Virus record (IMG/VR): IMGVR_UViG_2645728048_000025
DNA length: 15,946 nucleotides
Source of the DNA: a virus
Lineage: Duplodnaviria > Heunggongvirae > Uroviricota > Caudoviricetes
Reading direction: 5' to 3' (one strand)
The first letter of the stretch is position 1, and each line of letters begins with the position of its first letter. The translations under genes and the position numbers were made by a program. Below, in pieces: positions 4,327 through 15,946 of this stretch. A model generated the notes under the pieces. That model saw only the letters and a list, made by a program, of their open reading frames with translations. It was not told where the DNA came from and did not search any database.

Positions 4327-5763
4327 TCAGAATCCTCCTTTCTTCTTGGACTGCGGTTCCTCGCGTTCACGGCGGCGCATTTCAGCAGACTGTTGGTCTG
4401 TGTCATAAATAGCGCCATTTGCCTGTATGCAATACACCGTGCCGGTATTGCCATGACGATTGAGGCGAAGGATTAGTTCGGTTTCACCAGGAGGAACGCT
4501 GTCATCAAAAGCACCTTCACGATGGATCCCCACCCAATAATCGCAATCCTGTTCAATCTGCCCTGTATCTCGTGAGTCACTTGGTAATGGGCGTTTATTG
4601 GTTCGGCTTTCCAGTGCGCGGTTAAGCTGTGTCAGAAGCACAACAACGCAATCAAGCTCTTTGGCAAGGTTCTTCAGTCCTTTGGTGATCATGCCGTAAG
4701 CAAGGTCGTTGCGATCGGCCTTCTCAGCAGTCATTAGTGTCAGGTAATCGACCAGAATCATGCCAACACATCCTTTTTCTCGCTTGATTCGACGGCTTTC
4801 GCTGACGATTTGAGCCAGAGATAATCCCGGCGTGTCGTCGATGTAAAGCAGGTCGATTTCACTCAAGCGATTGGCTGTTTCGATCGCCCTGTTGAAGTCA
4901 CCATCGTAATCACCCTGATAGCCGTCATCAGCGTCATTTGTCGCCGGAAGGTAAAAAATATTCGGGTTAACACCTGACTTCTGTCCCACCAGTTTTTCCA
5001 GTATCTGGTCACCTGGCATTTCAAGGCTGAACATCAGAGCGGGCTTTTTCTCATGCACTGCACAGTTGATTGCCATCTGGCTGTATAGCGTCGTTTTCCC
5101 CATCTTAGGGCGAGCGCCAATGACAAACAAAGAGCCTTTCACCAGACCTTTCGGTGACAGCATCCTGTCCAGCGATGGGATCCCTGTGCTCATTCCCCGT
5201 TGTTCGCCTGATGGGTCAAATCGCTTCTCAAGGTCGCTAACCCAGTCTTCCATGACCTCACCAAATGAGCGAAGGCCGCGACGCGATCCGGTTTTTGCAT
5301 GGTCTGTCAGTTGCGTGAAAATCGCCTGAATAGCTTCGTACTTCTGCGTTGCAGTCATTCCATTGCGGGAATAGAGCAATTCCGTCGCTTCAGTCATGCG
5401 GTTGATGGCGTAGCGTTCCATTGCGGTTTCACGAACCTGCATTGCATAGGCAACGATGTTTGCTGCGCTTGGCGTGTTCTTTGCGATCTCAGCGATATAA
5501 GCAAAACCGCCAACAGACGCCGTTAACGATTTACGCTCCAGTTCATCGAAAAGCGTCAGGCCATCTACTGGCTTTTGCTCCCGGTGCATTCTGGTTATTT
5601 CTTCGAAAAGGATTTTGTGTGGTCGGCCGTAAAATGAATCAGGCTTCAGCATCGCCAGAACTTTCTGGACGCGCTCACTGCTGTCATCATCCAGAAGCAA
5701 TCCACCAATCACCGCCTGCTCTGCCTCGATGCTATGGGGCGGCGCATAAAAATTATCGGTCAT
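4327..5763 (-). CDS. Replicative DNA helicase, DnaB family (P22 gene 12-like)
   Basis: Walker A GARPKMGKTT and DnaB-like layout over about 478 aa. ATG at 5763 (MTDNFYAPPH) preceded by GAGGGTGAA is preferred over the track's GTG start at 5778; it overlaps the O-like stop by 11 nt. Confidence 0.88.
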   Translation of the reverse strand: MTDNFYAPPHSIEAEQAVIGGLLLDDDSSERVQKVLAMLKPDSFYGRPHKILFEEITRMHREQKPVDGLTLFDELERKSLTASVGGFAYIAEIAKNTPSAANIVAYAMQVRETAMERYAINRMTEATELLYSRNGMTATQKYEAIQAIFTQLTDHAKTGSRRGLRSFGEVMEDWVSDLEKRFDPSGEQRGMSTGIPSLDRMLSPKGLVKGSLFVIGARPKMGKTTLYSQMAINCAVHEKKPALMFSLEMPGDQILEKLVGQKSGVNPNIFYLPATNDADDGYQGDYDGDFNRAIETANRLSEIDLLYIDDTPGLSLAQIVSESRRIKREKGCVGMILVDYLTLMTAEKADRNDLAYGMITKGLKNLAKELDCVVVLLTQLNRALESRTNKRPLPSDSRDTGQIEQDCDYWVGIHREGAFDDSVPPGETELILRLNRHGNTGTVYCIQANGAIYDTDQQSAEMRRREREEPQSKKKGGF

Positions 5764-6514
5764 CGTGTTCACCCTCACGAACTTTCAGGTAGGTATTATC
5801 GTTAAGCAGGAAATCAAATCCCTTTTTGTGCCAGACGGTTCCGCGATGATGGTTTGGGCGCTCTTCGAACATCCATCGGCAATTTTCGCCTACGTAGCTC
5901 AAATAATTTCTCCAGTCCTGCATCGTGAACCCATGCCCGTCAAGCTGGCGGGTTATCACTCCGGCTTTGCGCCAGAACGTTCGGATCTGGTTTTTACGCT
6001 TGTCATTCAGTGCGCGGATTCTTGGCGCTTCAGGAAGGATTTCGTGGTAAGCATCGACAACATCCTGACAGCTAACGGAAGGTTTTTTCTTGTCAGACTT
6101 TTTGTCTGCTGTGGCACTCTCTAATACGTCAGTATTAGAGATATTATTTATATTATTGTTTATGGACAACCGTTGGACAACCGTTGGACAATTTTTTGCC
6201 TGAAAATCGTCATATTTAACGATTGTAAACAGGCTAAATTTCTTCCCCATCGAGCAAATATTAAGCATCCCTTTCGACTCAAAAGTCCGTAATAAGCTCC
6301 GAACTTTGTTGTCGGGGATGAATGTTTCTCTGACCAGCGACGGGCGTCCAGTTATCATCTGACCGCGATCAACAGTTATCGGACCGATATCCGTATTGAC
6401 GACAGTAGATTCGTGATTAGCCTTGAGGATTAAGTGAAGCCAAAGATGTACTGCCTGAGAGTCCTTATAGAGCCTGCTGTCCATAAACTGGCGGTGTATA
6501 GAGACATACCCCAT
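5753..6514 (-). CDS. Replication initiator, lambda O-like / P22 gene 18-like
   Basis: Start chosen at MGYVSIHRQFMDSRLYKDSQAVHLWLHLILKA (ATG 6514 preceded by CAGGAGG), a typical replication-protein-O N-terminal domain. An Asn/Ile-rich linker (SINNNINNISN) is encoded by the AT-rich ori segment. It sits upstream of the helicase. Confidence 0.8.
   Translation of the reverse strand: MGYVSIHRQFMDSRLYKDSQAVHLWLHLILKANHESTVVNTDIGPITVDRGQMITGRPSLVRETFIPDNKVRSLLRTFESKGMLNICSMGKKFSLFTIVKYDDFQAKNCPTVVQRLSINNNINNISNTDVLESATADKKSDKKKPSVSCQDVVDAYHEILPEAPRIRALNDKRKNQIRTFWRKAGVITRQLDGHGFTMQDWRNYLSYVGENCRWMFEERPNHHRGTVWHKKGFDFLLNDNTYLKVREGEHDDR
6118..6195. repeat. Candidate origin of replication inside the O-like gene: palindrome, AT-rich tract, 11-bp iterons
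   Basis: 24-bp perfect palindrome TCTCTAATAC-gtca-GTATTAGAGA (6118-6141); AT-rich tract 6141-6162; tandem TGGACAACCGT at 6163-6173 and 6174-6184 plus a partial third copy TGGACAATTTT (6185-6195). Confidence 0.55.
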
Positions 6515-7447: not shown

Positions 7448-8164
7448 ATGGAAAATAAAAAATCACTGACGACAGAACAGCTCGAAGACGCTAAGCGGCT
7501 TAAGGCTTTGTATGAGTCAAAAAAGAAAGAATTGGGAATAACCCAATACTCAATCGCTGATGAACTGGGTATCACCCAAGGAGCGGTAGGGCATTATCTT
7601 AATGGCAGAAACGCGCTAAACGTTGAGGTTGCATCTGGTTTTGCACGATTGTTGCAAGTCTCAATTGCTGATTTTAGCCAGTCAATTGCTGCCAAGGTTG
7701 CAGAACAGGCAGAAAGCCTTAAGAGCGATGCCAACGTAAGGTATGCAGGGGAATACAGAGCAGGAAAGAGGTATCCGGTGTTAAGCAGTATCCAGGCTGG
7801 CTCGTGGTGTGAAGCATGCGAACCATACACCATTAAAGACATAGATGTTTGGCTTGAGTCTGACGCGCATATTCAAGGTAATGCGTTCTGGCTTAAAGTG
7901 GAAGGTGATTCAATGACGGCACCGGTTGGGTTAAGCATTCCAGAGGGAACATTCGTTCTTTTCGATACCGGAAGGGAGGCGATCAACGGCAGCTTGGTCA
8001 TAGCAAAACTTTCTGACTCTAACGAAGCAACATTCAAGAAGCTGATAATCGACGGCGGAAATAAATACCTCAAGGGACTTAATCCTGCATGGCCTCTCGT
8101 GCCAATCAATGGAAACTGCAAGATTATAGGCGTTGCAATTGAGACAAAACTAAGGCTGGTTTGA
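7448..8164 (+). CDS. cI: CI repressor (HTH N-terminal domain plus S24 LexA-like autopeptidase domain)
   Basis: HTH region (ITQYSIADELGITQGAVGHYLNG), putative Ala-Gly cleavage site in YPVLSSIQAGSW, catalytic Ser in EGDSM and Lys in FKKL; collinear with lambda CI. Confidence 0.9.
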   Translation: MENKKSLTTEQLEDAKRLKALYESKKKELGITQYSIADELGITQGAVGHYLNGRNALNVEVASGFARLLQVSIADFSQSIAAKVAEQAESLKSDANVRYAGEYRAGKRYPVLSSIQAGSWCEACEPYTIKDIDVWLESDAHIQGNAFWLKVEGDSMTAPVGLSIPEGTFVLFDTGREAINGSLVIAKLSDSNEATFKKLIIDGGNKYLKGLNPAWPLVPINGNCKIIGVAIETKLRLV

Positions 8165-8181
8165 TCACGCAAGGGGCGATT

Positions 8182-8550
8182 ATGGTTGGAACCGCTATAG
8201 CAAGCTTTTTGGGGATGTTGGCAATCTCAACAATTTACGGCTTAGCGCATGCTTTTATTGCGAAATCTCTATCAGAAAAAATAAGCCAGGCTTGGGCGCA
8301 TAGATCTGCTCGTTTCATGATTCTAGTGGTCATAGCAATACAAGGGATATCTGCATTTATCCTCTATGGATCAAGCTTATACCTGTTGTATCAAGGCGCG
8401 ACATTTACGCCTTACACCAGTGATTACGGAACTCTATACGATGGTAGTGAAGACATCTCTATGGCTTGGATCGTCTTTGGTTTATCTATGGCCGTGTCTG
8501 TTGTAGCAGACATCATTAAGGTAATTCTCGTCTTAACCTTCGCTGACTAA
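8182..8550 (+). CDS. Small integral membrane protein (about 122 aa) immediately downstream of cI; function unknown
   Basis: ATG at 8182 preceded by AAGGGG, 18 nt after the cI stop. Three long hydrophobic segments. Visibly more AT-rich than cI. Occupies the rexAB/sieB-type slot. Confidence 0.6.
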   Translation: MVGTAIASFLGMLAISTIYGLAHAFIAKSLSEKISQAWAHRSARFMILVVIAIQGISAFILYGSSLYLLYQGATFTPYTSDYGTLYDGSEDISMAWIVFGLSMAVSVVADIIKVILVLTFAD

Positions 8551-8917: not shown

Positions 8918-9190
8918 ATGACAGTAGTCATTACATATCTGGCTGACGATAACGCCAGAAATCGCCGCAGAGCACGCAGACAGGCTCAACGTGAACAGGC
9001 AATGCAAGAGCAGCAACTGGCGCGAAAAATTGCGCTAAAGCTCTCTGGTTGCGTCAGAGCAGATAAAGCAGCATCACTCGGAAGCCTTCGCTGCAAGAAG
9101 GCAGATGAATGCAGTGGAAGTATTTGCCTGCCAAACGTAGCTCTTTACGCGGCAGGCTACCGTAACTCCAAACAACTGACAGCAAGATGA
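8918..9190 (+). CDS. N: N-like transcription antiterminator (arginine-rich motif)
   Basis: 90-aa ORF with N-terminal ARM (DDNARNRRRARRQAQREQAM); GGAGG 5 nt upstream of the ATG; first gene downstream of PL/nutL. Confidence 0.72.
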   Translation: MTVVITYLADDNARNRRRARRQAQREQAMQEQQLARKIALKLSGCVRADKAASLGSLRCKKADECSGSICLPNVALYAAGYRNSKQLTAR

Positions 9191-9250: not shown

Positions 9251-9493
9251 ATGAGAGTAAAAACTATGGGCGCAAGCCCATTAAGTGGTCGTATTTTTCA
9301 AGGAACATTAAACACTGAAAAAGGAATGTGGGTGGGAAAGAAAGAAGATGTAACCGAACAGGCAGTTAAGGCAGTAGCTGAACACATGATGATAAAAGAC
9401 CAGAAATATGCATACGAAACGAAGGATGGCAAATGGCTGATAATAAGTCATCAAATAGTTGATAAATTACCAGAAGAGTTTATTGCTGATTAA
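9251..9493 (+). CDS. Hypothetical protein (80 aa) directly after N
   Basis: ORF with GAGGA upstream; no recognisable family; followed by a hairpin and an intrinsic terminator. Confidence 0.45.
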   Translation: MRVKTMGASPLSGRIFQGTLNTEKGMWVGKKEDVTEQAVKAVAEHMMIKDQKYAYETKDGKWLIISHQIVDKLPEEFIAD

Positions 9494-10136: not shown

Positions 10137-10844
10137 ATGGATTTGAACAAATTCGATGAGCCATTCAGCCCTGAAGATATCGAATGGCGAATACAGCAAA
10201 GCGGTAAAACACGCGATGGCAAGGTGTGGGCTATGGTGCTGGCTTATGTCACGAACCGGGCAATCATGAAACGCCTGGACGATGTTTGCGGCAAAGCAGG
10301 ATGGCGCAATGAATACCGCGATATTCCCAACAACGGCGGCGTTGAATGCGGCATATCAATAAAGATTGATTCCGAATGGGTAACCAAATGGGATGCTGCT
10401 GAAAACACGCAGGTAGAAGCCGTCAAAGGTGGTCGTTCCGGTGCAATGAAGCGCGCTGCCGTTCAGTGGGGAATCGGTCGGTATCTGTATAACCTTGAGG
10501 AAGGTTTCGCACAAACATCTCTCGATAAAAAGCAGGGGTGGCACAGGGCAAAACTGAAGGATGGAACAGGATTTTACTGGCTCCCTCCATCGCTTCCGGG
10601 ATGGGCAATCCCAGCATCAGATAACAAACCATCACCAGAAAATACCAACCAGAAATCTCCATCGGTTGACTGCGAACAAATCCTGAAAGACTTCAGCGAT
10701 TATGCGTCAACAGAAACTGACAAGAAAAAACTCATCGAGCGTTATCAGCGTGACTGGCAATTAATGGCTGGCAATGAGGATGCGCAGGCTAAATGCGTTC
10801 AGGTAATGAGCATCAGAGTTAACGAACTAAAACAGGCGGCATAA
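10137..10844 (+). CDS. Single-strand annealing recombinase: Rad52/Sak-like core with an Erf-like C-terminal tail
   Basis: Core motif AVQWGIGRYLYNLEEG is typical of Rad52-family annealing proteins; the C-terminal 60 aa (ILKDFSDYASTETDKKKLIERYQRDWQLMAGNEDAQAKCVQVMSIRVNELKQAA) resembles the C-terminus of P22 Erf as recalled. GAGGTGA RBS. Confidence 0.72.
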   Translation: MDLNKFDEPFSPEDIEWRIQQSGKTRDGKVWAMVLAYVTNRAIMKRLDDVCGKAGWRNEYRDIPNNGGVECGISIKIDSEWVTKWDAAENTQVEAVKGGRSGAMKRAAVQWGIGRYLYNLEEGFAQTSLDKKQGWHRAKLKDGTGFYWLPPSLPGWAIPASDNKPSPENTNQKSPSVDCEQILKDFSDYASTETDKKKLIERYQRDWQLMAGNEDAQAKCVQVMSIRVNELKQAA

Positions 10845-11351
10845 ATGGCAAGCAGAGGCGTAAATAAGGTGATTATCCTTGGTCGGGTAGGACAAGACCC
10901 GGAAGTTCGATACTCACCATCAGGAACAGCGTTCGCTAACCTGACAATAGCCACGTCAGAACAATGGCGAGATAAAAATACTGGCGAGCAAAAGGAATTG
11001 ACTGAATGGCATCGTGTTGCTGTATCCGGGAAACTGGCTGAGGTCGTGGGGCAGTATGTGAAAAAAGGTGATCAGATTTATTTCGAGGGAATGCTGAGAA
11101 CCAGAAAGTGGAAAGACCAGTCAGGGCAAGACCGTTACACAACCGAGGTTCATGTCGGAATTAATGGCGTGATGCAGATGCTTGGCGGCATTGGCGACAG
11201 CAAACAACAAGCAGCCAGCAGGCAATCACAGAAGCCACAGCAGCAATCATCACCAGCACAACACAACGAACCTCCGATGGATTTTGACGACGATATACCC
11301 TTTGCACCAGTAACTCTCCCCTTCCCTCGTCACGCTATTCACGCAATTTAA
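10845..11351 (+). CDS. ssb: Single-stranded DNA-binding protein with a 15-aa extension beyond the DDDIPF tip
   Basis: OB-fold N-terminus ([39 protein letters not shown]), Gln-rich linker, MDFDDDIPF, then [15 protein letters not shown] before the stop. Confidence 0.85.
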
Positions 11352-11364
11352 TCAGGAGAAAATC

Positions 11365-11661
11365 ATGCCAGCGCCTCTGTATGGTGCGGACGACGCGCGC
11401 CGCTGTTCCGGCAATTCCGTATCGGAGGTGCTGGATAAATTCAGAAAAAACTACGACCTGATAATGTCGCTACCGCAGGAAACGAAAGAGGAAAAGGAAT
11501 TTCGCCACTGTATATGGCTTGCAGAGAAAGAAGAACGCGAGCGAATTTACCAGACATCAATCCGACCATTCCGCAAAGCCACATATACCCACTTCCCTGA
11601 ATATATCGACCCGCGCCTGCGTAATTACCGCTCACGCTATGGCGCTATCAGTAATGACTGA
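11365..11661 (+). CDS. Hypothetical protein (98 aa)
   Basis: ORF with AGGAG upstream; no recognisable family. Confidence 0.5.
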
Positions 11662-11671
11662 GGAATTTACC

Positions 11672-11839
11672 ATGAGAGGACTTGCATACAATCCCGGAAT
11701 TCTTCCGGCAGAAATGATTATTCGCCAACGCGTAAAGCCAATGCCATCGATAGAGGAATTGCTTAAGAGAAATTCTTTTCCATCAGTGAATCAAAACAAA
11801 TATCTGAATGCGATGTGGCGTAAAGGAGGCAAGCAGTGA
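11672..11839 (+). CDS. Hypothetical small protein (55 aa)
   Basis: Internal ATG of the track ORF 11519..11839, preceded by GAGGAA; begins 11 nt after the previous stop. Confidence 0.4.
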
Positions 11840-12090
11840 GTAATTCCGCACGACTACAGCTTGGTTTTTCACCGCTATCAAAAACTATCATGCTGGCAAA
11901 AATGCGCGATGTTGAAGGTGGACGTATGCGCGTTGGCAATGATCCAGGTCGTGATGTTACCAATGAGGCTGCTCAATTGGTGTGGCGACTGGTCATGGCT
12001 GAAGGTGGTGAGATCGCGTGGGAGCTGGATGATGGTTCTCGCATGGTGTTGAAGGCAGAAAAGCAGGAGGCAACCAGTGAGCAAGATTGA
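11836..12090 (+). CDS. Hypothetical protein (84 aa, GTG start)
   Basis: GTG preceded by AAGGAGG, overlapping the previous stop (GTGA). Confidence 0.45.
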
Positions 12091-12721
12091 TTATCAAAAG
12101 CTTCGTGAAATCGCTGAAAAAACAAAAATTGCCGGTGAAGCACCTGTAATGCCTTGCGATCAGCGAATTAATGCGCTTAACGATTTTATGAAGCACTTTT
12201 CGCCAGATATCGCGCTGGCATTGTTGGATGAACGGGAAAGAAACCAGCAATACATCAAAAGCCGCGATCAGGAGAACGAGGATATTGCGCTTACGGTTGG
12301 GAAGCTGCGCGTTGAGCTGGAAGGCAAAGACAGCAAAATAGCCAATCTTACCGCCGAACGCGATGCTCTTCGTGAAGGTGAGATGGGCGACGCTAGGCAT
12401 AGCAACACACGGGCCGCAGCTGATATCTACTTCCAACTGGTCGAGGAGTGCGAAATTCCTGCTGGCGGTTCTCTGGTCGAGTACGTTGACGATATGCGCG
12501 AGAAGCTGGAAGCCGCAGAGAAGCGCATTGCAGAGTTAGAAAGTGGTTCTCAGGCACAAAAGTTAGTTGAAGCAATCATTGTTGCGATAGAAAACGAACA
12601 GGAAAGGCTTTTTGATGAAGATTACCTAATGGATTCGAAAGAATGCATTGACGTAATTCGTGAAGAAGTAAAGCGATGGAATGATTCCCGCGCCGCTGGC
12701 ATTCGCATCAAAGGAGAGTGA
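12077..12721 (+). CDS. Ea22-like coiled-coil protein (214 aa, GTG start)
   Basis: N-terminus [17 protein letters not shown] resembles the conserved start of Ea22-like prophage proteins as recalled; central heptad-rich segment. AGCAGGAGG RBS. Confidence 0.55.
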   Translation: MSKIDYQKLREIAEKTKIAGEAPVMPCDQRINALNDFMKHFSPDIALALLDERERNQQYIKSRDQENEDIALTVGKLRVELEGKDSKIANLTAERDALREGEMGDARHSNTRAAADIYFQLVEECEIPAGGSLVEYVDDMREKLEAAEKRIAELESGSQAQKLVEAIIVAIENEQERLFDEDYLMDSKECIDVIREEVKRWNDSRAAGIRIKGE

Positions 12722-12722
12722 T

Positions 12723-12914
12723 ATGGACGGACAAATATCAATCGTTCGACCAGGAGCATGTGACGATCGCGAAATACGAATAATTATTCGTCTGGCAATG
12801 GGGAAAACAATAACTGCTCTCATTACCCCAGAAAATCTCGCATTAGCATTAACAGGAAAGTCAGACCTGCCAGTAGAGCTAAAGCTGCGAAATGTTGAGA
12901 TTAAGGTGAAATAG
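12723..12914 (+). CDS. Hypothetical small protein (63 aa)
   Basis: ATG preceded by AAAGGAGAG, one nt after the previous stop. Confidence 0.45.
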   Translation: MDGQISIVRPGACDDREIRIIIRLAMGKTITALITPENLALALTGKSDLPVELKLRNVEIKVK

Positions 12915-12916
12915 CT

Positions 12917-13561
12917 ATGACCACTATTACCAAAGAACGTATCGAATTATTCATTAAAAATCCGCTTGAAAACGGGCTTACCCGTGGCGAACAAATGGAA
13001 CTGGCACGAATTGCACTGGCCTCGCTTGAGGCAGAGCCAGTTGGTGCATTCCACATTGCAGAACAGCAAGTTGACGGTACAAGTGACTACATCAAGGATG
13101 GAGAGTGGCCTATTGATAATGGGATTATTGAAGTCTACGCCGCTCCGCCAGTACCGGTAGTACCTGCTGCATTACCTGAGAACGACGATGAGGACGGGCA
13201 TGACATTGATTATCTTGAGCCATCTGAAGTTTACGCGCTTGGGCGAACAGCTGGATGGAGCGCCTGCCGCGCCGCCATGCTTCAGTCCGGAAACTTTCGG
13301 GAAAACAAGAATTCGTCAACCAATAATTTTCGGGATATTGCGGAAACGTCAACCAACTCTCCGGTAACTCCGGATAGTTGGATAAGCTGTAGTGAGCGAA
13401 TGCCAAACGAAGAAGATGTTTTGGTTTATTGTTCAGACACAAAAGAGCAGATGGTAGGGTTTCACAAAGGTAAAGGGTTATTTCAATTCTTTTACATGAA
13501 CGGTGTTGAGGGGGTATGTGAGCCGTCACACTGGATGCCGCTACCAGAGCCTCCACTTTGA
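12917..13561 (+). CDS. DUF551-like phage protein (214 aa)
   Basis: C-terminal WISCSERMPNEEDVLVYC ... HWMPLPEPP matches the DUF551 pattern common in lambdoid early-left accessory regions (recalled). Confidence 0.6.
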   Translation: MTTITKERIELFIKNPLENGLTRGEQMELARIALASLEAEPVGAFHIAEQQVDGTSDYIKDGEWPIDNGIIEVYAAPPVPVVPAALPENDDEDGHDIDYLEPSEVYALGRTAGWSACRAAMLQSGNFRENKNSSTNNFRDIAETSTNSPVTPDSWISCSERMPNEEDVLVYCSDTKEQMVGFHKGKGLFQFFYMNGVEGVCEPSHWMPLPEPPL

Positions 13562-13657
13562 AAGCGAAGCTTATACATATCTTTTACATCAGCAATCTAT
13601 TGTTAATCTCCAATCAATGTTACGTTGTCATCTCACTCATGCTTTGGAGGTAGTGAT

Positions 13658-13837
13658 ATGTCTTGTCCAAAATGCGGTTCTGGAAATATTGCAAAAGAAA
13701 AAACAATGCGTGGATGGTCTGGAGATTATGTGTGCTGCGATTGCGGATACAACGACTCTAAAGACGCATTTGGAGAGCGTGGTAAAAACGAGTTTGTTAA
13801 AATTAATAAAGAAAGCGAAGGCAACGAAAAAAGCTAA
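13658..13837 (+). CDS. Small zinc-ribbon protein (59 aa)
   Basis: MSCPKCGSGNIAKEK ... YVCCDCGYND with paired CxxC motifs; GGAGG upstream; Lys/Glu-rich tail. Confidence 0.5.
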   Translation: MSCPKCGSGNIAKEKTMRGWSGDYVCCDCGYNDSKDAFGERGKNEFVKINKESEGNEKS

Positions 13838-13902
13838 TTTATTTATTCATATATGAAAACAATGTAACCAATATTCGAATTGAAGAACTGAAAGAACACC
13901 AA

Positions 13903-13926
13903 GCCGCCTGATGGCGGTTTTTTATT
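13903..13926 (+). terminator. Rho-independent terminator closing the plus-strand early-left gene block
   Basis: GCCGCC-tgat-GGCGGT followed by TTTTTTATT. Confidence 0.6.
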
Positions 13927-13933
13927 GCCTGAT

Positions 13934-13949
13934 TTGCAGGTTCGATTCC
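13934..13949 (+). other. tRNA-derived fragment A (T-arm segment TTGCAGGTTCGATTCC); candidate att core
   Basis: 16 nt matching the T-stem/T-loop region of tRNA-Arg (argW) as I recall it; no 5' tRNA portion precedes it. Confidence 0.45.
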
Positions 13950-13968
13950 CTATTCGGAGATAGCACTC

Positions 13969-14169
13969 ATGCAACACGAACTACAACCTGATTCACTGGT
14001 TGATTTGAAATTCATCATGGCCGATACTGGCTTCGGTAAAACCTTCATCTATGACCGGATTAAGTCCGGCGACCTGCCTAAAGCCAAAGTTATCCACGGA
14101 CGAGCAAGATGGTTATATCGTGACCATTGTGAATTCAAAAATAAGCTCTTAAGCCGCGCCAATGGGTAA
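13969..14169 (+). CDS. AlpA/Xis-family small DNA-binding protein (excisionase-like, 66 aa), with no adjacent integrase
   Basis: LVDLKFIMADTGFGKTFIYDRIKSGDLPKAKVIHGRARWLYRD fits the AlpA-type winged-helix pattern; GGAGA upstream of the ATG. Confidence 0.55.
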   Translation: MQHELQPDSLVDLKFIMADTGFGKTFIYDRIKSGDLPKAKVIHGRARWLYRDHCEFKNKLLSRANG

Positions 14170-14242: not shown

Positions 14243-14257
14243 CTGCAGGGGACACCA
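14243..14257 (+). other. tRNA-derived fragment B (3' end CTGCAGGGGACACCA); candidate att copy or host junction
   Basis: Matches the 3'-terminal acceptor/T-stem sequence of argW as recalled, including the terminal CCA; the preceding bases AGATGTC look like a degenerate T-loop. Confidence 0.45.
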
Positions 14258-14645
14258 GATACCCTTCAAACGAAATCTACCTTCACCCCGTAAAAGATGG
14301 GTTTGGCAGCACACTTGCCTTATATCTACTCATTTTTACTGCAACAGGTTGAAATCTCAGCACTGTCAGAAAGCGCTGATGACTAAACAGCCCTGGGCCG
14401 GGCGATGTAACCATCACACAGAATCCTGATAGCGAAATATGGCGTGACTCGATACTTCACTCCGCAATGCATTCCTTGATGAATTCGCAGGACCGTGATA
14501 CACGGGACAGGTCACTGAATGACGACAATGTCCTGGAAATCAGCGAACCGCGCATCTGAAGTACATTTGAGCGACTGTACCAGAACATGAATGAGGCGTT
14601 TGGATTAGGCGATTATTAGCAGGGCTAAGCATTTTACTATTATTA

Positions 14646-14689
14646 TTTTCCGGTTGAGGGATATAGAGCTATCGACAACAACCGGAAAA
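14646..14689. repeat. 11-bp perfect inverted repeat TTTTCCGGTTG / CAACCGGAAAA with a 22-nt spacer, just downstream of the cscB stop
   Basis: Seen directly in the sequence; no U-tract follows the stem on either strand, so it is not a canonical intrinsic terminator. Confidence 0.4.
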
Positions 14690-14698
14690 AGTTTACGT

Positions 14699-15946
14699 CT
14701 ATATTGCTGAAGGTACAGGCGTTTCCATAACTATTTGCTCGCGTTTTTTACTCAAGAAGAAAATGCCAAATAGCAACATCAGGCAGACAATACCCGAAAT
14801 TGCGAAGAAAACTGTCTGGTAGCCTGCGTGGTCAAAGAGTATCCCAGTCGGCGTTGAAAGCAGCACAATCCCAAGCGAACTGGCAATTTGAAAACCAATC
14901 AGAAAGATCGTCGACGACAGGCGCTTATCAAAGTTTGCCACGCTGTATTTGAAGACGGATATGACACAAAGTGGAACCTCAATGGCATGTAACAACTTCA
15001 CTAATGAAATAATCCAGGGGTTAACGAACAGCGCGCAGGAAAGGATACGCAACGCCATAATCACAACTCCGATAAGTAATGCATTTTTTGGCTCTACCCG
15101 ATTCACAAAGAAAGGAATAATCGCCATGCACAGCGCTTCGAGTACCACCTGGAATGAGTTGAGATAACCATACAGGCGCGTTCCTACATCGTGTGATTCG
15201 AATAAACCTGCATAAAAGACAGGAAAAAGTTGTTGATCAAAAATGTTATAGAAAGACCACGTCCCCACAATAAATATGACGAAAACCCAGAAGTTTCGAT
15301 CCTTGAAAACTGCGATAAAATCCTCTTTTTTTACCCCTCCCGCATCTGCCGCTACGCACTGGTGATCCTTATCTTTAAAACGCATGTTGATCATCATAAA
15401 TACAGCGCCAAATAGCGAGACCAACCAGAAGTTGATATGGGGACTGATACTAAAAAATATGCCGGCAAAGAACGCGCCAATAGCATAGCCAAAAGATCCC
15501 CAGGCGCGCGCTGTTCCATATTCGAAATGAAAATTTCGCGCCATTTTTTCGGTGAAGCTATCAAGCAAACCGCATCCCGCCAGATACCCCAAGCCAAAAA
15601 ATAGCGCCCCCAGAATTAGACCTACAGAAAAATTGCTTTGCAGTAACGGTTCATAAACGTAAATCATAAACGGTCCGGTCAAGACCAGGATGAAACTCAT
15701 ACACCAGATGAGCGGTTTCTTCAGACCGAGTTTATCCTGAACGATGCCGTAGAACATCATAAATAGAATGCTGGTAAACTGGTTGACCGAATAAAGTGTA
15801 CCTAATTCCGTCCCTGTCAACCCTAGATGTCCTTTCAGCCAAATAGCGTATAACGACCACCACAGCGACCAGGAAATAAAAAAGAGAAATGAGTAACTGG
15901 ATGCAAAACGATAGTACGCATTTCTGAATGGAATATTCAGTGCCAT
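14699..15946 (-). CDS. cscB: LacY-family (MFS) oligosaccharide:H+ symporter, sucrose permease CscB-like (415 aa, complete)
   Basis: N-terminus MALNIPFRNAYYRFASSYSFLFFISWSLWWSLYAIWL and overall layout match LacY-family permeases, and to my recollection E. coli CscB specifically. The start codon is at the last base of the window. Confidence 0.8.
   Translation of the reverse strand: MALNIPFRNAYYRFASSYSFLFFISWSLWWSLYAIWLKGHLGLTGTELGTLYSVNQFTSILFMMFYGIVQDKLGLKKPLIWCMSFILVLTGPFMIYVYEPLLQSNFSVGLILGALFFGLGYLAGCGLLDSFTEKMARNFHFEYGTARAWGSFGYAIGAFFAGIFFSISPHINFWLVSLFGAVFMMINMRFKDKDHQCVAADAGGVKKEDFIAVFKDRNFWVFVIFIVGTWSFYNIFDQQLFPVFYAGLFESHDVGTRLYGYLNSFQVVLEALCMAIIPFFVNRVEPKNALLIGVVIMALRILSCALFVNPWIISLVKLLHAIEVPLCVISVFKYSVANFDKRLSSTIFLIGFQIASSLGIVLLSTPTGILFDHAGYQTVFFAISGIVCLMLLFGIFFLSKKREQIVMETPVPSAI

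Follow-up and report, generated by a model that had tools for sequence, protein, structure and literature searches.

Within a 15,946-nucleotide (nt) stretch of DNA from IMG/VR virus record IMGVR_UViG_2645728048_000025 (Caudoviricetes), hereafter the window, we analyzed positions 11365–13837, a 2473-bp block in which seven plus-strand open reading frames (ORFs), O1 to O7, are tightly packed. The block is very probably the 'ea' accessory segment, the equivalent of the exo-xis region of lambda, of an HK620/P22-like (Lederbergvirus-type) prophage at the E. coli argW site. Its first gene is, by homology, abc2, encoding the P22-type anti-RecBCD protein 2, and the products of O2–O7 fall by sequence into recurrent phage families (DUF2737, DUF7446, Ead/Ea22, hkaF type, DUF551, and Eag). 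Comparison of related loci shows that phages trade whole genes and parts of genes of this block, by recombination at short conserved junctions. To our knowledge, none of the six families represented by O2–O7 has a known molecular function. The gene combination itself is already known; annotation of the region dates back to the HK620 and P22 genomes.

Coliphages HK620 and HK633 give the best nucleotide matches, at 97% identity over 58% of the block; P22-like Salmonella phages and Stx phages come next, with coverage by any phage record reaching a maximum of 58–66%. Beneath the nucleotide match, HK620 is annotated with abc2, DUF2737, ead/Ea22-like, DUF551, and Eag genes. Gene order and orientation are those of HK620 hkaJ–hkaD (NC_002730) and of the P22 'ea' counterpart (abc2...eaA-eaG); in HK620 the series runs hkaJ, hkaI, hkaH, hkaG, hkaF, hkaE, hkaD, an integration promoter with its cII site, hkaC, and the attP core. 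On the plus strand of the window we found, in order, cI, N, a DUF7446 gene, cIII/kil-type small genes, a Rad52-type annealase gene, an SSB gene, and O1–O7, followed by a hairpin, the integration promoter, a TorI-type excisionase gene, and attR. The block thus shares its strand with N and cI and is flanked by the recombination genes on one side and xis on the other, with cII and DnaB on the strand opposite to the leftward early operon. The lambda/Stx exo-xis region (ea22, ea8.5, orf60a/61/63) occupies an equal position in the PL operon, from the recombination genes to xis, and is likewise mosaic, dispensable, and equipped with an Ead/Ea22 member. HK620 differs from the window in carrying hkaH (160 amino acids) at the site of the 84-residue DUF7446 gene, and its Ead and DUF551 proteins are only 55% and 37% identical to those here.

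O1 matches Pfam family PF11043 (Anti-RecBCD_p2) with an E-value (E) of 4e-62 and a score of 206.9 bits against a cut-off of 25, its residues 1–98 aligning to profile positions 1–97 of 97 and hence over the full length; it also matches phrog_656, annotated 'abc2 anti-RecBCD'. Among solved structures, O1 aligns end to end (residues 1–98, E = 2.3e-56) with P22 Abc2 (8b1t_A), and the P22 protein of the RecBCD complexes 8b1t and 8b1u differs from it by only about nine substitutions or indels, which are concentrated in the C-terminal third. HK620 hkaJ is 96% identical to O1. The original prediction, made without database searches, had held that none of the seven ORFs has an assignable function; O1 contradicts it, since this Abc2 matches both the Pfam family and a protein of solved structure (PDB 8b1t) whose RecC binding has been characterized (PMC9836394). 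P22 Abc2 binds the Chi-recognition domains of RecC while RecBCD activities are left largely intact, and it has been proposed to re-purpose RecBCD rather than block it, with single-stranded DNA passed to the phage annealase or the recombinase loaded (PMC9836394). By analogy with this homolog, O1 would be expected to bind RecC.

O1 adjoins the recombination module, from which it is separated by a 13-nt gap after the SSB gene. In P22, Abc2 is accompanied by Abc1 and the Erf annealase, whereas the prophage described here lacks abc1 and carries a Rad52-family annealase together with its own SSB; lambda, in turn, obtains its anti-RecBCD function through Gam, a role that would fall to Abc2 here. Elsewhere, Abc2 proteins of 97–100% identity adjoin at least three upstream modules, which contain an SSB that is 100% identical, an SSB that is about 70% identical, or none detectable, and the annealase near abc2 is Sak4-like in HK620 and Rad52-like in the window. 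Abc2 is therefore not tied to one recombinase type.

To follow the block across phages, we compared 87 abc2-anchored loci, comprising HK620, six genomes, and 80 IMG/VR contigs. The original prediction had proposed a variable accessory region of lambdoid phage type and had suggested looking for cassette-like swapping among related prophages; the comparison bears out both, with mosaic exchange evident across the 87 loci. Among the 29 loci that contain both abc2 and a TorI-type xis, 26 distinct intervals of 1.2–4.3 kb separate the two genes. All 87 loci contain abc2 and a DUF2737 homolog; O3 is limited to 8 of them, O5 to about 8, and Eag to about 11, while Ead and DUF551 genes are usually present and only 26–60% identical. 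The number of loci aligned by blastn drops from 86 to 7 near position 11830, the end of O2, and then peaks near or within genes at 12045–12095, 12195–12300, 12695, 12945–13000, and 13345–13395, and again over the hairpin and promoter (13845–13945, 39–51 loci). Lambdoid phages classically swap modules at short conserved linkers in this way.

The seven ORFs are, on the strength of their family matches, Shine-Dalgarno motifs, and an excess of differences at third codon positions, genuine genes (Table 1). Pfam matches above the gathering score were obtained for five of the seven (O1, O2, O3, O4, and O6), and PHROG matches cover O5 and O7. An AGGAG/GGAGG-type Shine-Dalgarno motif lies upstream of all seven starts; for O2, O5, and O7 it belongs to shorter ATG starts, the same as those used in HK620 and in gene calls on public assemblies. 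Gene callers on those assemblies report the same seven genes, of 98, 55, 84, 214, 63, 214, and 59 amino acids. Across loci, differences between homologs are concentrated at third codon positions (for O2, 505 of 854), and the ratio of nonsynonymous to synonymous polymorphism (pN/pS) is 0.15 for O1, 0.34 for O2, 0.26 for O5, and 0.23 for O7. A comparative coding signal for the small ORFs, on which the original prediction had staked their reality, was therefore found in the form of purifying selection wherever variation sufficed (O2, O5, and O7). The four small ORFs that it had left uncharacterized are real genes, and only one of them, O5, is without a Pfam family; its labels for the three remaining ORFs of the seven, Ea22-like, DUF551-like, and zinc-ribbon, were correct (O4 and O6 by Pfam).

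We consider it very improbable that O2, O3, O5, and O7 are in part chance open frames in transcribed spacer. These ORFs are short (55–84 amino acids), and variant homologs of O3 are too scarce for a meaningful ratio (pN/pS of 0.31, resting on only six differences among loci). However, the family matches are strong (E from 1e-18 to 4e-40), a Shine-Dalgarno motif accompanies each start, and O2, O5, and O7 combine the third-position excess with pN/pS of 0.23–0.34; in addition, protein conservation reaches unrelated phage genera at 35–68% identity, and O3 has a paralog within the same operon. Antisense ORFs at 11993–12436 and 13125–13556 matched no phage family and were treated as spurious, and an Rfam scan yielded no RNA element at gathering thresholds, nor was any tRNA detected.

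The packing of the seven genes between ssb and a terminator was likewise as originally described. O1 and O2 are separated by 10 nt, O2 and O3 overlap by 4 nt (GTGA, at 11836), O3 and O4 overlap by 14 nt (at 12077), and O4 and O5 are separated by 1 nt (at 12723), all three of the latter junctions as predicted; the gap at 12917, between O5 and O6, had been given as 1 nt and is in fact 2 nt. O6 and O7 are separated by a 96-nt spacer.

Table 1. Coordinates of the block genes and of flanking features in the window.
Feature	Position	Strand	Details	Assignment
O1	11365–11661	+	ATG start, 98 amino acids	abc2
O2	11672–11839	+	ATG start, 55 amino acids	DUF2737 (HK620 hkaI / HK97 gp38 type)
O3	11836–12090	+	GTG start, 84 amino acids	DUF7446
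O4	12077–12721	+	GTG start, 214 amino acids	Ead/Ea22-like
O5	12723–12914	+	ATG start, 63 amino acids	HK620 hkaF-like
O6	12917–13561	+	ATG start, 214 amino acids	DUF551 (EaA / HK620 hkaE type)
Spacer	13562–13657	+	96 nt, AT-rich, 35% GC	
O7	13658–13837	+	ATG start, 59 amino acids	Eag (HK620 hkaD / P22 eaG type)
Hairpin	13901–13920	+	GC-rich, with T-run; right-hand border of accessory block	Intrinsic-terminator-like
Integration promoter	13924–13962	+	cII-binding site 13925–13937	By identity to HK620 annotation (5756–5794, 5757–5769)
Excisionase	13969–14169	+	66 amino acids; 100% identical to HK620 hkaC	TorI-type; phrog_66 excisionase
attR core CTGCAGGGGACACCA	14243–14257			Matches attP core annotated in HK620
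Repressor	7448–8164	+		cI-type
N	8918–9190	+		N
Annealase	10137–10844	+		Rad52 family
SSB	10845–11351	+		SSB

O2 matches Pfam PF10930 (DUF2737) at E = 2.6e-30 (104.5 bits, cut-off 25) as well as phrog_1117, and is 94% identical to HK620 hkaI. Each of the 87 loci has an O2 homolog downstream of abc2, which makes it the only constant abc2 partner, although an extra gene of about 290 nt sometimes stands between the two. The pairing persists where abc2 is only 77–94% identical, whatever annealase is found upstream. Because the pairing is constant in all 87 loci, DUF2737 could be an overlooked partner of Abc2 in the re-programming of RecBCD. A weak hairpin at about 11765–11777, inside the O2 coding sequence, corresponds to the terminator annotated as tL3 in HK620, and its sequence is conserved here.

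O3 belongs to a second family, DUF7446 (Pfam PF24233, E = 1.3e-18, 67.1 bits, cut-off 24.1; phrog_1578, E = 9e-34), and is found in 21 phage records from several genera at 61–99% protein identity. Another DUF7446 gene, encoding 80 amino acids, lies on the plus strand at 9251–9493, directly after N (Pfam E = 5.6e-29, phrog_1578). Its product is 31% identical to O3, such that one PL operon appears to hold two diverged DUF7446 paralogs.

O4 matches Pfam PF13935 (Ead/Ea22) over residues 2–155 (E = 1.9e-18, 67.8 bits, cut-off 27) and phrog_250, and HK620 hkaG is its HK620 counterpart. The Ea22 family has a pro-lysogenic effect in lambda and Stx phages, which points to control of the lysis-lysogeny decision (PMC7093339, PMC10834534), and the C-terminal domains of Ea22 variants are interchangeable (PMC10834534). 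A search of O4 against PDB sequences gave no match at E ≤ 0.1, the solved C-terminal domain of lambda Ea22 included; by sequence, the C-terminal domain of O4 is therefore not of the lambda Ea22 type.

O5 has no Pfam family and matches phrog_1222 over its full length (E = 3.9e-40). It is 98% identical to HK620 hkaF, and homologs occur in 176 phage records, the virulent Dhillonvirus included. In the virulent siphovirus Dhillonvirus vB_EcoS_011D5, a 68%-identical homolog at 2501–2692 lies between genes for DNA polymerase I and small endonucleases. O5 also weakly matches the C-terminus of phrog_11564, annotated as a DNA methyltransferase (E = 4e-6).

The DUF551 domain of O6 (Pfam PF04448, E = 1.4e-18, 68 bits, cut-off 22) occupies residues 154–213, and O6 is 100% identical to an E. 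coli protein named 'DUF551 domain-containing protein'. A protein search returned more than 8000 relatives, and nearly all of those listed carry PF04448. Alignment shows O6 to be a patchwork of variable modules joined at ARIALASLEAEP, VYAAPPVPVVP, GWNACRAAML, VTPDGWISCSERMP, and HWMPLPEPP; across the family, differing versions of the N-terminal, middle, and linker modules and of the DUF551 core meet at these five short invariant peptides. Some relatives have an inserted domain of about 75 residues ahead of DUF551. A literature search on DUF551 found no reported function. In Stx phages DUF551 is the C-terminal module of some Ea22 variants, whereas here it is a separate gene, and in other phages the gene at this locus joins DUF551 to dATP/dGTP pyrophosphohydrolase domains (PMC10834534). 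Structure prediction and fold searches, which had been suggested as a route to function, were of limited yield: an AlphaFold2 model of O6 from a 34-sequence alignment had a predicted local distance difference test score (pLDDT) of 38 and was unusable, and Eag retrieved generic zinc ribbons only.

O7 (Eag) is 100% identical to HK620 hkaD, matches phrog_2945 at E = 3e-31, and is preceded by GGAGG 7 nt ahead of its ATG. It consists of a Cys4 zinc ribbon followed by a Lys-rich helix, and its AlphaFold2 model (pLDDT 71) has strands at residues 10–16 and 19–26 and a helix at 33–55; only weak zinc-ribbon matches were obtained against NCBIfam. The 96-nt spacer ahead of O7 is inherited with Eag as one module, as blastn depth is equal over both (11 loci). 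A consensus scan of the plus strand of this spacer found no promoter-like site, although an Eag-specific promoter or leader RNA may still exist. The Lys-rich tail occurs in nature in two reading frames that differ by one A in an A-run: the window and HK620 read ...GKNEFVKINKESEGNEKS, while P22-type proteins read ...GKTSLSELIRNAKATKKANLFIHI from the other frame of the same DNA. An alternative-frame ORF at 13503–13856 also matches phrog_2945, and several database Eag 'homologs' are frameshifted at the A-run near 13700, through either sequencing error or real variation.

The zinc ribbon and the position of O7 raised the question of whether Eag is a Lar/RalR-type restriction-alleviation factor or small DNase toxin, as found in the Rac prophage between recT and xisR; we judge this improbable. 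Lar/RalR, like Eag, is a small Cys4 zinc-ribbon protein whose gene is the last ahead of the excisionase, Eag is 30% identical to K-12 RalR over 54 residues (pairwise E = 5e-4), and precomputed matches to Lar_restr_allev (PF14354) exist for several Eag clusters. The PF14354 match of Eag itself (E = 8.7e-5) nevertheless scores 23.1 bits, below the cut-off of 28.6, and distant Eag relatives score 17–22 bits against Lar, all below cut-off, and about equally well or better against TFIIB and HVO_2753 zinc ribbons. Alignment of Eag with the RalR/Lar profile in hhalign gave 9.8% probability over 26 columns that are essentially the CxxC motifs, and the Eag signature WSGDY(V/I)C is missing from RalR. 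Foldseek searches of BFVD and PDB recovered generic zinc ribbons only, none at E ≤ 1e-3; with this query model (pLDDT 71), Lar-named BFVD entries appeared only at E > 1, amid many generic zinc ribbons. An HMMER scan of 1.84 billion representatives returned only 17 Eag relatives. Membership of Eag in the Lar/RalR family was accordingly rejected, the profile, hhalign, and fold tests having revealed nothing beyond a generic Cys4 zinc ribbon, and homology to the Rac protein is unsupported past that motif; a Lar-like activity of Eag is likewise improbable. Rfam gave no matches for a RalA-like antisense RNA, although no search aimed at RalA was made.

Placed in the distal part of the leftward early (PL) operon, as operon position and family knowledge suggest, the block would be read through from O1 to O7 by N-antiterminated PL transcripts, and the 4-nt and 14-nt overlaps and 1–2-nt gaps suggest coupled translation from O2 through O6. 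Abc2 would re-purpose RecBCD, such that single-stranded DNA is handed to the phage's own annealase, while the hairpin downstream of O7 may insulate xis from unmodified transcripts. O2–O7 would most likely tune host physiology and the choice between lysis and lysogeny without being essential, in keeping with the published work on Ea22, and we infer that the block as a whole is accessory and dispensable.

Several points weigh against this picture. PL-driven expression and translational coupling are features that we infer, and the roles proposed for six of the seven proteins derive from genomic position or family literature. The pro-lysogenic role of Ea22 may not transfer to O4, whose C-terminal domain appears to differ from that of lambda Ea22. 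Finally, the exact gene combination is confined to draft and metagenome assemblies: none of the complete E. coli genomes and phage records searched contains at least 80% of it. One IMG/VR contig (L008) holds all seven genes at 98–100% protein identity, the exact O4 protein occurs on 22 contigs, and the 2473-bp block is 99.96–100% identical in the five public E. coli assemblies examined; contig JHSN01000009.1 of GCA_001265995.1, one of the five, matches the window without a difference across 7870 bp.

A different account of the block would make it an anti-defense island in which, beyond Abc2, at least one of the six other proteins directly inhibits a host defense system or nuclease. This is possible, though we think it rather unlikely. 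Abc2 heads the block, its content is highly variable, and the DUF551 fusions to pyrophosphohydrolase domains in other phages fit such a role; moreover, a published screen treated abc2-containing accessory regions as counter-defense hotspots, and P22 abc1, the abc2 neighbor, triggered abortive infection in that accessory-gene screen (10.1101/2023.04.06.535777). Against this account, no annotated anti-defense PHROG other than Abc2 was matched, PADLOC defense-system models matched none of the seven proteins, and no solved-structure (PDB) relatives of O2, O3, O4, O5, or O6 were found. Ea22, the sole family with published genetics, points to lysogeny control, and the supplements of the screen do not contain these families, save one truncated DUF551 fragment without function (10.1101/2023.04.06.535777). 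The expectation that host-takeover and anti-defense genes would sit in this region thus holds for Abc2, whereas PHROG and PADLOC gave no anti-defense signal for the other proteins and Ea22 leads instead to lysis-lysogeny. That one of the O2–O7 proteins is a new host-takeover or counter-defense effector is doubtful; the best candidates would be DUF2737 and Eag, the latter with its zinc ribbon, its own 96-nt leader, and its two alternative C-terminal tails. We retain the reading of the block as an 'ea' accessory segment headed by abc2.

To the right, the 131 nt after Eag (13838–13968) are 100% identical to HK620 and are conserved in 39–51 of the 87 loci, far above the flanking genes. A tRNA-like string at 13937–13950 was considered and rejected as a tRNA; it is part of the HK620 integration-promoter region. 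In E. coli genomes the excisionase gene that follows bears the annotation torI. The window ceases to resemble HK620 after CTGCAGGGGACACCA, and similarity to the same prophage flanked by LysR and GntP genes in other assemblies stops exactly at 14257, which on this comparison marks the right end of the prophage (attR). In HK620 and KplE1 the attP site separates xis from int; with the same arrangement here, the integrase would lie at the other prophage end, outside the window. Host DNA then includes a gene for a LacY-family permease (415 amino acids, 14699–15946), and the torI-permease junction occurs in 2622 complete E. coli genomes. The host flank (14258–15946), with its LacY-family permease and then a PfkB kinase, resembles a sucrose (csc) cluster; in other strains with the same prophage, LysR and GntP-permease genes stand in place of this permease/kinase flank. 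At the opposite side of the early region, a hydrophobic 129-residue ORF with a TTG start (8161–8550, plus strand) directly follows the cI-type repressor and matches phrog_6534 at E = 3e-78. Lambdoid phages often carry lysogen-expressed exclusion genes just after the cI-type repressor.

As it stands, the finding matters little, being a re-description of an annotated region whose identical sequence is present in public E. coli assemblies. The block nonetheless illustrates, in compact and clean form, how modules are shuffled in lambdoid accessory regions, and it flags six very abundant phage protein families without a known molecular function. The occurrence of Abc2 with several recombinase types bears on the proposal that a specific phage recombinase is loaded, and the invariant abc2-DUF2737 pairing provides one specific, testable lead.

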